DNA from: an uncultured Gammaproteobacteria bacterium
Lineage (GTDB): Bacteria > Patescibacteriota > Patescibacteriia > Magasanikbacterales > GWA2-37-8
Assembly (NCBI GenBank): GCA_964510885.1
Contig: CAZEDL010000001.1
Span: 64,684-128,683 of the forward strand
DNA length: 64,000 bases
Reading direction: 5' to 3'
Numbering within the stretch: the first letter of the stretch is position 1; each line of letters opens with the position of its first letter. A program made the translations under genes and the position numbers. Shown here in pieces: positions 15,834 to 18,206 of the stretch. The notes under the pieces are model-generated. The model saw only the letters and a program-made list of their open reading frames with translations. It ran no database searches and was not told the DNA's origin.

Positions 15834-18206
15834 TTATTTTTTAACACTGTGGCCTCCAAACTGATTACGCATTGTAGACAGTAATTGCCCGGTATAGCTT
15901 GGCTTCTTTTTCGATTTCACGCGGAAATTAAACGAATCTTCAATCACAGGGGCAGGTACTTTTAATTTCTTGGCAGTTTTCACCGTCCACTCGCCTTCGC
16001 CCGTATAGTTTACCGCTCCCGAGACTGATTTCAAATTTTCACCATATGCTTCAAAGCCGCTTTTCAGCCAGCCGACCAGCCGTGATTCTATTACGCTGCC
16101 GCGGTTGTACAGCCGTGCCACCTCAGTGAGGTTTGGTTTGAAGTTAGATTTTTTCATCACGGCAAAACCTTCGGCAATTGCCTGCATCATACCATATTCA
16201 ATCCCATTATGTACCATTTTAATAAAATGCCCAGCACCAGCGCCATCAAACATGGCATAGCCTTCGGGCAGCGCGAGATCAACCCATAAGTGCTCAAGCC
16301 GCTTGGCTCGTTTTTGTCCGCCACCAATCATGAGGCAGGCACCATTCCTGGCTCCGGCCGGACCACCAGATACTCCCACATCCAAAAAGTGAATGCCTCG
16401 TTTTTCAAGCAATTTACCACGTCGTTCGGAATCAAGGTAAAACGAATTACCTCCATCTATAATCGTGTCACCCCGCTCAACATAGTTAATAAGCCCGTCT
16501 TGCGTGCCAAATAGTACCTCATCAACGGGCGCTCCTGCAGGCACCATCATCCAAATCAATCGCGGAGCGGGCAGGCTGTCGACTAATTCTTTAAGTGTAG
16601 TTGCGGTCCGTGCGCGAATTTCTTGTCCAAGCGTCATGGCGACTTCATGGGTACGATTAAATAGAGTGGTGCTCCAGCCTTTTTCTGCCAACCGTCGAGC
16701 CACATTTGCCCCCATTTTTCCGAGACCAATAATACCAATTGATTTTGAAAGCACAATCGGCATAGAGGCAGCCGGCTTGGTTTCAGTAATGACTGCTACA
16801 TCCGGTTCGTATTGCTCGAGTATCACTCCGTTATTTTTCCATACGTGAATAATTGGGTCGATAAATTTCCACATTGCTTTAATCTCTCGAGTCTCATTAA
16901 ACAGTGTTTGGTCGCCCATAATACAGTCGAGAAGAATTTTTTTGTATTCTTCGACATAAAGCATGTCGCTCTTCTGCCCCCGCAGTAAAAAATCGATCGT
17001 TCGCTCATCGAGCTTATATTCTATACCCGGCAATTTAGACCAAAATTTAATACTAATGCCTTCGGTAGGCTCGACCGAAAAAATAATTTGATTCTGATGA
17101 TGTGGCTCCCCAGGGGGACACCAGCAAGGAGATGTATGTTTAAAGGTTACAATAATTTCTTTTTTGCGTACTCCGAGCCGTTTTCCACTCTCGAGCATGA
17201 TAGGCACCCCACTCCACCGCGGAGAGTCAAGCTCAAAGGTGAGCTTAAAGTACGTTTCGTTATTAGAATTTTTGGCCACGCCAACAATGTCTTGGTATCC
17301 GGCATATTGTGCCCGGCGGGTAGATTTTTTAATATCTTTAGCAGATAACTTGGGAAGTTTTTCAAGCAGTTTCATGCGTTCATCACGGATTGCCTCAGGC
17401 GAAAACTCAGCCGGCTGATTCATAGTTACAAGTCCCAGCATTTGCAAGAGATGGTTCTGCCCCATATCACGCAGCGCCCCCACGGAGTCATAATACCGAC
17501 CTCGCTCTTCCACTCCGAGCGTTTCCCAAAGACGCAAATCAATTCGCTCAATAAATTGATTATTCCATATGGGCTCGAATAAATTATTGGCAAATCTAAA
17601 GCTCAAAATATTCTGCAACATCGTTTTGGCCAAGTAGTGATCGATGCGATAAATTTGTTCTTCCTTAAATAGCTTGCCTAATCGTTCATCTAGTCGTTCG
17701 GCCGTTTTTAAATCGTTGCCAAACGGTTTTTCTACCAGCACACGACTCCAGCCTTCCGCTGCGGAACAAGGCTTGGTTAAATTAGACTGCGCTAAATTTT
17801 CTACAATCGGTTCGATAAATGTTGGCGGCACGGCCAAATAAAAGAGTTTATTCGAGCAAGCCTTCCATTCGCCATCGATATACCCTAGGCGTTCAGCCAG
17901 CGAACGATACGCCTGAAGCGCATCAAAATCACCCTGTTGCCACTCAATCCGTTTCAAAAATCCAGCCACCTGATCGGCTGGTGTAGTTTTGAATTCAGCT
18001 CGCTCCAAAATAATCTGCCGCACCTGGTCACGGAATGCCTCTGCCGTTAAATTTCGATGTGAAAATCCAATAATATGAAATAAGCGGGGTAATTTTTTTT
18101 CTAAATAGAGATGAAATAATGCGGGCACGATTTTGCGCCCCATCAAATCGCCAGTAGCCCCAAAAATAATAAGGATCGTAGGTAATGTAAGAGAGGTAAA
18201 ATCCAT
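15834..18206 (-). CDS. fusion protein: glucose-6-phosphate dehydrogenase (N-terminal ~480 aa) + short-form 6-phosphogluconate dehydrogenase, decarboxylating (C-terminal ~300 aa)
   Basis: G6PD motifs [18 protein letters not shown] and [14 protein letters not shown]. 6PGDH motifs [41 protein letters not shown] and RNQFGGHSV. Single uninterrupted 790-aa frame. Confidence 0.85.
   Translation of the reverse strand: [790 protein letters not shown]

Follow-up and report, generated by a model that had tools for sequence, protein, structure and literature searches.

A single-chain fusion of glucose-6-phosphate dehydrogenase and short-chain 6-phosphogluconate dehydrogenase in a Patescibacteria genome

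We analyzed a stretch of 64,000 nucleotides (hereafter the window) from contig CAZEDL010000001.1 of assembly GCA_964510885.1, and in particular one gene on its minus strand, in which a glucose-6-phosphate dehydrogenase (G6PD, Zwf) is followed, in the same polypeptide, by a 6-phosphogluconate dehydrogenase (6PGDH, Gnd). Very probably, the gene is genuine and was inherited vertically in a Magasanikbacteria-like member of the Candidate Phyla Radiation (CPR), and it encodes a bifunctional G6PD-6PGDH enzyme, for which we infer both activities, the cofactor use, the oligomeric state and the selective reason for the fusion. The gene, its modules and the domain matches within its product (aa, amino acid positions) are as follows.

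15834..18206, minus strand: Zwf-Gnd fusion gene, predicted to be bifunctional, 790 codons plus the stop codon at 15834-15836 (open reading frame list and domain scans)
16806..18179, minus strand: G6PD (Zwf) module, aa 10-467 (TIGR00871)
16746..16799, minus strand: interdomain linker, aa ~470-487 (~18 residues), unconserved and of variable length
15837..16742, minus strand: short-chain 6PGDH (Gnd/YqeC-type) module, aa 489-790 (TIGR00872 and NF007161)
aa 13-199: Pfam G6PD_N, E-value 8e-56, 190 bits
aa 202-468: Pfam G6PD_C, E-value 1.3e-81, 274 bits
aa 489-640: Pfam NAD_binding_2, E-value 1e-40
aa 659-769: Pfam 6PGD, E-value 1.2e-19
aa 10-467: NCBIfam TIGR00871 (zwf), 471.6 bits against a curated cut-off of 400.6
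aa 490-790: NCBIfam TIGR00872 (gnd_rel), 328.3 bits against a curated cut-off of 297.2
aa 489-790: NCBIfam NF007161, 336.7 bits against a cut-off of 271

The open reading frame (ORF) starts with ATG, encodes 790 amino acids and has zero internal stops. As both halves score above the curated cut-offs, the first-pass annotation of the window, which described one uninterrupted frame with a complete G6PD and a complete YqeC/Gnd-like 6PGDH, was correct in this respect, and the Pfam and NCBIfam scans agree with it that one polypeptide combines step 1 with step 3 of the oxidative pentose-phosphate pathway (PPP). A single polypeptide thus carries the two families in the order G6PD, then 6PGDH, and the window holds one copy of each half. 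Models for the sister beta-hydroxyacid dehydrogenases score far under their cut-offs (HIBADH, 57 against 292 bits; tartronate semialdehyde reductase, 76 against 341 bits).

All motifs quoted in that annotation were found in the modules to which it assigned them. The G6PD module contains GATGDL (16-21), EKPFG (159-163), RIDHYLAK (187-194) and QNH (250-252), and the 6PGDH module GLGKMG (494-499), N517-R518-T519, SGG (613-615), the quoted stretch at 657-680 with the cluster K663/H666/N667/E670 (within KMVHNGIEY), and RNQFGGH (780-786). Across an alignment of 60 fusions, G16/T18/G19/D20/L21, E159-K160-P161-G163, R187/H190/Y191/K194 and Q250-N251-H252 are invariant in the first half, as are G494/G496/M498/G499, S613-G614-G615, K663/H666/N667/E670 and R780/H786 in the second. 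In the enzymes of L. mesenteroides and human, the functional motifs of G6PD are the coenzyme fingerprint GxxGDL, EKPxG, the substrate- and active-site motif RIDHYLGK, and QNH with the catalytic histidine; in sheep 6PGDH they are the Lys/His/Asn/Glu cluster, the SGG loop and, at the C terminus, the Arg…His tail.

The 6PGDH module (302 aa) has a single helical domain, unlike the 470-aa form of the enzyme, in which the C-terminal domain is duplicated. Its Pfam 6PGD match covers profile positions 1-117 of 290 only, and it aligns end-to-end with the solved short forms compared (8ihe, 6vpb and 6xeq; 332-353 aa). An AlphaFold2 model of the fusion shows two folded modules (mean predicted local distance difference test score, pLDDT, 89.5; predicted template-modelling score 0.73). 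In Foldseek comparisons, the G6PD module of this model superimposes on 1dpg, 1e77 and human G6PD with target-normalised template-modelling scores of 0.86-0.88 and a root-mean-square deviation of 2.5-2.7 Å. The search of the PDB returned no single chain that spans both modules.

The first-pass annotation left open whether the fusion is a lineage-specific innovation or an artefact of assembly or of a frameshift that joined adjacent genes. The former part stands, in the sense of a trait of a CPR clade, and the latter does not. The window protein is 100% identical to a public protein (P0001) on a 400,724-bp NCBI contig. Among 5.8 billion clustered proteins, the best 120 matches comprise, besides this protein, no fewer than 119 clusters that are 777-828 aa in length, with 98-100% query coverage and 53-76% identity, drawn from independent NCBI, JGI, ENA and Logan assemblies. 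A scan of GTDB with query-specific peptide patterns, in which the 80 loci are the matches listed and no measure of prevalence for all CPR genomes, contains zwf and gnd in one frame in 11 species representatives (L001-L011), and one further carrier lies on a 928,688-bp Woesebacteria contig (QQR63809.1).

The fusion also occupies the same chromosomal position in five relatives, of which L081 and L083 are the closest (76% identity) and L001-L003 are more distant (62-64%). In these genomes it lies between dus (together with pgl and the glutamine synthetase gene glnII in L081 and L083) and the transketolase gene tkt; the arrangement of dus-pgl-glnII facing fusion-tkt is kept in L081 and L083. Neighbouring proteins of the syntenic relatives are 63-88% identical to those of the window, for example 80% for alanyl-tRNA synthetase (AlaRS). 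The search of related genomes that had been proposed as a check therefore recovered the same fusion, in the 11 listed species representatives and at the five syntenic loci. Standalone zwf and gnd genes in all close relatives had been named as evidence that would count against it; the opposite was seen, as all close relatives are fused.

The artefact explanation holds that the loss of a stop codon or an erroneous frameshift in the contig merged adjacent zwf and gnd genes. It draws some credit from the fact that shifting the frame by one nucleotide suffices to convert one state into the other: in one GTDB representative (L012), the TGA that ends zwf overlaps the ATG that begins gnd, within the linker. 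A chance error would, however, have to account for at least 119 other independent clusters and for five syntenic relatives, all with the same in-frame architecture, for a junction with conserved flanks and a linker that varies in length by whole codons, and for a 400-kb assembly whose protein is already public. Since independent assemblies, species representatives and syntenic relatives all carry the fusion, we regard the artefact as effectively refuted and give it next to no probability.

The junction had been placed at about residue 480 (nucleotide ~16770), and the domain limits together with the alignment agree, giving aa ~469-488 (nt ~16746-16799). Conservation per column in the linker is 0.15-0.37 against 0.9-1.0 in the flanks (60 fusions), which read W456…Y466-x-P468-D before the linker and K-E-I-G-I-I-G494-L-G-K-M-G after it. 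The segment from P468 to G494 varies between 22 and 43 residues across these fusions, with a mode of 30, and has 27 residues in the window. In the AlphaFold2 model, the sole interdomain dip in pLDDT coincides with the linker (81 for residues 471-480 and 68 for residues 481-490). An internal start at Met482 in the linker, from which a separate Gnd could be made, was considered and rejected as a feature of the family, because this position is not conserved across the fusions (maximum frequency 0.18).

The window comes from a genome of the CPR/Patescibacteria that lies near Magasanikbacteria, as judged from four observations. Its AlaRS, a short form of 618 aa, is 72-78% identical to proteins of Candidatus Magasanikbacteria, the Parcubacteria group and the Patescibacteria group. 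Its AtpD scores 737 bits against the beta subunit of 2qe7, which we take to be a Bacillus-type enzyme, and 662-671 bits against those of E. coli and Acinetobacter. RpoA (32525-33343, plus strand; 272 aa) has the insert and dimerisation domains and no match to the alpha-CTD. Finally, no outer-membrane or lipopolysaccharide genes were seen in the 64-kb window. The window contains no rRNA genes and hence no 16S rRNA.

The records of four GTDB representatives (L001-L003 and L012; CAZECR01, CAZINT01, CAZWKA01 and CAZDER01), which include the three closest to the window, are nevertheless titled "uncultured Gammaproteobacteria bacterium". These titles are what could be said for a gammaproteobacterial host that gained a CPR-type fusion by horizontal transfer. 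Against such a transfer stand the affinity of AlaRS with Magasanikbacteria, Parcubacteria and Patescibacteria, the grouping of AtpD away from E. coli and Acinetobacter, the short RpoA, the lack of envelope genes in the 64 kb, and the flanking genes of L001-L003, which are co-linear with the window. We consider it very improbable. As L001-L003 are co-linear with a window whose AlaRS and AtpD indicate Patescibacteria, their titles are most likely mislabels.

The fusion is the standard form of these enzymes across the CPR. All named carriers belong to it: Magasanik-, Levy-, Roizman-, Portnoy-, Harrison-, Taylor-, Buchanan- and Woesebacteria, Microgenomates, Saccharibacteria and Minisyncoccia. About 12 full-length fusion clusters, with identities down to 39-40%, were found among 1.84 billion representatives clustered at 50% identity, a number that serves as a rough estimate of size only; for three of the most divergent clusters, the architecture was confirmed with Pfam. 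Among the 80 listed loci, most non-CPR phyla and some CPR members (L034 and L035) have separate adjacent genes, usually in the order gnd→zwf and with 34-46% identity.

Neighbour-joining trees built for each half unite the 71 fused sequences in one clade in 30 of 30 bootstraps, in a sample that is biased toward the peptide patterns of the query and excludes the diatom and DPANN fusions discussed below; a single origin therefore holds for the CPR set only. Within that set, a single fusion event is the most plausible origin, in which a zwf→gnd pair would have lost its stop/start boundary. Three unfused zwf genes (L012, L013 and L014) nest within the fused clade. In L012 (3650-3900), the split falls exactly at the linker, and the ATGA overlap described above places the fused and the translationally coupled states one nucleotide apart; this split may reflect a genuine secondary fission, or else an indel introduced in sequencing. 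For L013 and L014, no gnd was found within 10 kb on either side of the fused-clade zwf, which itself lacks the C-terminal tail of G6PD and ends ~22-26 residues past the conserved Trp, suggesting that these two genomes lost or relocated the 6PGDH half.

Two further observations concern distant members of the family. In L084 (1550-4568) and L085 (8001-11134), a gene for a ROK-family glucokinase lies immediately 3' of divergent fusions (39-42% identity), overlapping the fusion gene in L084; the pair suggests a compact module from glucose to ribulose-5-phosphate. A protein of 868 aa from a JGI metagenome (P0259) aligns to Zwf with 50% identity over aa 8-451 and continues for ~420 residues that have no Pfam match, and this C-terminal part may be a different fusion partner.

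With regard to function, the N-terminal module would oxidise glucose-6-phosphate to 6-phosphogluconolactone, which would leave the protein and be hydrolysed spontaneously or by the separately encoded 6-phosphogluconolactonase (Pgl; 21451-22113), after which the C-terminal module would oxidatively decarboxylate 6-phosphogluconate to ribulose-5-phosphate. Because the intermediate must exit the protein for step 2, we favor the view that, in what is a very small genome, the fusion most likely keeps the two NAD(P)H-producing steps co-expressed at a fixed 1:1 ratio and co-localised; channelling directly between the fused modules is less likely.

For the 6PGDH half, the N-R-T motif at 517-519 leads us to predict the use of NADP+, contrary to the NCBIfam product name (NAD+-dependent). 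The corresponding residues are D-H-D in 8ihe, D-R-D in 6vpb and D-R-T in 6xeq, and N-R-L in the 6PGDH of G. stearothermophilus (2w8z). Asn and Arg occupy positions 517 and 518 in 51 of the 60 fusions, with Asp at 517 in the other nine (9/60).

Several points weigh against this picture of a bifunctional, vertically inherited enzyme. First, the canonical C-terminal tail of G6PD (GxWGP…DGRxW) is absent from every sequence of the fused clade (L001-L014). In nearly all standalone G6PDs examined, a tail of the form GxWGPxxAdxLlxxDGrxW follows the conserved W…Y, and in the fusions the linker occupies its place. The Pfam G6PD_C match, which covers profile positions 2-276 of 296 and leaves the last 20 (277-296) unmatched, is in accord with this loss. 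The tail loss is a clade-specific variation and gives no ground to exclude the module from the G6PD family. Second, the G6PD of the window has His50 at the position of the Arg that binds the 2'-phosphate (Arg72 in human G6PD), followed by Arg51; Arg is the family consensus at position 50 (51 of 60 fusions). Because His50 replaces the usual Arg, the cofactor assignment of the G6PD half is less certain than that of the 6PGDH half, and altered kinetics or cofactor use are possible. Third, the literature searched contained no biochemical or structural study of any CPR-type fusion, so that bifunctionality is inferred from sequence. To these add the sampling of the trees, as set out above, and the exclusion of an artefact from assemblies and relatives rather than from raw reads.

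The first two of these points also bear on the possibility that the fusion is real and just one of its halves works as a PPP enzyme, with a C-terminal module that is another beta-hydroxyacid dehydrogenase (of the HIBADH or tartronate-semialdehyde-reductase type) or a tail-less G6PD that is inactive or regulatory. The missing tail, the His at the Arg72-equivalent position and the fact that the C-terminal module also matches the HIBADH and tartronate semialdehyde reductase models speak for it. Yet those matches reach 57-76 bits against cut-offs of 291-340, and gnd_rel is above its cut-off; the 6PGDH-specific K/H/N/E cluster, the R…H tail and all G6PD catalytic motifs are invariant; and pgl and tkt are genomic neighbours. 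Moreover, the two halves show similar rates of evolution, their identities to L001-L003 being 63-64% and 65-67%. We therefore judge a single working half to be improbable and retain the bifunctional enzyme as the preferred reading.

Standalone short-chain 6PGDHs complete their active sites only in a higher-order assembly. As the tail loss coincides with covalent attachment of the 6PGDH in the clade, one may speculate that the fusion and the loss of the tail together form a hetero-functional oligomer of a new kind, such as a tetramer with pairs of 6PGDH scaffolded by a G6PD dimer. This assembly could perhaps couple or co-regulate both NAD(P)H steps and recruit Pgl, with clade-specific cofactor switches (N/D at 517, R/H at 50). 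No such G6PD-6PGDH oligomer has been described, and we hold this proposal to be a rather doubtful one.

The fusion was implied to be novel in the first-pass annotation, a suggestion that is not supported in view of its standing across the CPR and of two earlier reports, from 2011 and 2024. A G6pd-Pgd fusion was reported in one Diapherotrites (DPANN) genome and in 60 assemblies from candidate phyla of bacteria (mSystems 2024, PMC11237513); these fusions join the same two enzymes in the same host group, and the window protein falls inside the CPR-fusion clade. That report devotes one sentence to the fusion and gives no domain order, linker, residues, cofactor, phylogeny or enzymology. Earlier, a G6PD-6PGD fusion was described in the diatom Phaeodactylum tricornutum by Stover, Dixon & Cavalcanti (2011; PMC3148214), who then found no second example in nr. 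By architecture, on which alone the two were compared, it resembles that of the window in joining steps 1 and 3, skipping the lactonase and having G6PD upstream. It differs in being eukaryotic and confined to one species and its closest relatives, and its gene model is disputed (39 nt between the genes, later split by JGI).

Three other kinds of system invite comparison. The G6PD-6PGL enzymes (Plasmodium GluPho, metazoan H6PD, Giardia and Trichomonas; PMC3148214, PMC6346587; PDB 8em2) likewise combine G6PD with a second oxidative-PPP enzyme and are often annotated as G6PD only. In these, however, the partner is the lactonase, the steps are the consecutive 1 and 2, and channelling is plausible, whereas the ORF in the window contains no 6PGL domain (no match to Glucosamine_iso/6PGL, PF01182, in the Pfam scan of the 790 aa) and Pgl is separate. 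Standalone short-chain 6PGDHs of the TIGR00872/B. subtilis YqeC type (6vpb from Gluconacetobacter diazotrophicus, 8ihe Gnd2, 6xeq and 4e21) share with the window a length of ~300 aa, one helical domain, the catalytic residues and the R…H tail, but are free-standing; the residue that ends beta-2 is Asp in 8ihe (deposited as NAD+-dependent), 6vpb and 6xeq, in contrast to the N-R-T of the window. Finally, in Chloroflexota, Acidobacteriota, Planctomycetota, Nitrospirota and some CPR (within L016-L080, including L034 and L035), the same families, short-chain gnd and zwf, stand side by side as separate genes, in the order gnd→zwf or zwf→gnd. These pairs differ from the fusion in consisting of two ORFs, mostly in the opposite order, in keeping the G6PD tail and in lying outside the fused clade.

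Taken together, the fusion is a real, lineage-ordinary and already published trait that is under-annotated and uncharacterised. What the present analysis adds, by computation only, is the missing tail of G6PD, the NADP-type motif, the intermediate with the ATGA split, monophyly for each half, and the genomic contexts with glucokinase or with tkt/pgl.

Around the fusion gene, the following features were recorded.

13521..15371, minus strand: transketolase (tkt), NF004559, 865.6 bits
15405..15824, minus strand: ORF of 139 aa between the fusion and tkt, TTG start, no family match
18247-18220, minus strand: promoter-like site TTCTCA-16-TATCAT with TG, upstream of the fusion and directly after the hairpin (weak evidence)
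18249-18282, minus strand: hairpin with a 14-bp stem and T-runs on both sides, putative terminator of the upstream gene
21451..22113, plus strand: 6-phosphogluconolactonase (Pgl, step 2), TIGR01198, 149.7 bits against a cut-off of 124.45

The separate lactonase gene that had been placed at 21451 is thus present, on the strand opposite to the fusion. Transketolase had been described as sitting just downstream; it is indeed downstream on the same minus strand but not immediately adjacent, as the 139-aa ORF intervenes. For this ORF, there was no Pfam match and no homologue in the syntenic relatives L001-L003 and L081-L083. No terminator-like site was found at 15372-15833 on the minus strand, and the ORF is possibly co-transcribed with the fusion. 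By eye, its C-terminal stretch SNREIADLVGSASTVAAHLDRAERIM resembles a helix-turn-helix of the sigma-70 region-4/LuxR type.

The whole upstream control region of the fusion spans 18220..18282 (minus strand). Terminator-like sites are enriched over shuffled sequences (14 against 5.7±2.6), and promoter-like sites are not (15 against 10.7±3.4), which makes the promoter scan uninformative.

On the other side of the fusion, the ORF at 18401-18883 (minus strand) encodes a Cys-rich, lipoprotein-like protein of 160 aa with no family match. A GlnII-type (eukaryote-like) glutamine synthetase follows at 19214-20254 (plus strand; NF041605, 503.6 bits against a cut-off of 500), and is conserved beside the fusion in L081, L082 and L083. 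Between GlnII and pgl lies an ORF of 240 aa (20437-21159, minus strand) that is locally GC-richer (0.52) and has no family match; because L081 and L083 have nothing at this position, we regard it as a lineage-specific insertion in the PPP neighbourhood.

Elsewhere, positions 1-6640 have a low GC content (0.34, against ~0.45-0.47 in the rest of the window) and look like an integrated mobile element, the other end of which may lie beyond the window. It includes the following.

238-1218, minus strand: DUF4365 protein, in the low-GC stretch
3004-4767, plus strand: Prim-Pol/PriCT_1/AAA_25 primase-helicase, in the low-GC stretch
5017-6606, plus strand: large serine recombinase, whose 3' end overlaps the tRNA gene below
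6567-6639, minus strand: tRNA-Asn(GTT), at the edge of the low-GC stretch

Near the other end of the window, at 60847-63762 (plus strand), a 971-aa PcrA/UvrD-type helicase carries a C-terminal Cas4-type nuclease domain and is AddA-like (TIGR00372, 53.3 bits, under the cut-off of 65).

The main value of the finding is practical. Current annotations name one half of the protein only, as "glucose-6-phosphate dehydrogenase" or "phosphogluconate dehydrogenase (NAD(+)-dependent)", and metabolic reconstructions of CPR genomes can therefore miss zwf or gnd; the same naming can also mislead the assignment of cofactors. A natural single chain predicted to make two NAD(P)H per glucose-6-phosphate is a candidate for cofactor-regeneration biocatalysis. 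The fusion opens no long-standing question, and offers a test case for why non-consecutive steps of a pathway fuse. Within the Patescibacteria, the fusion, combined with the missing G6PD tail, serves as a clean marker of the clade, which here revealed probable mislabels among metagenome-assembled genomes titled as Gammaproteobacteria.

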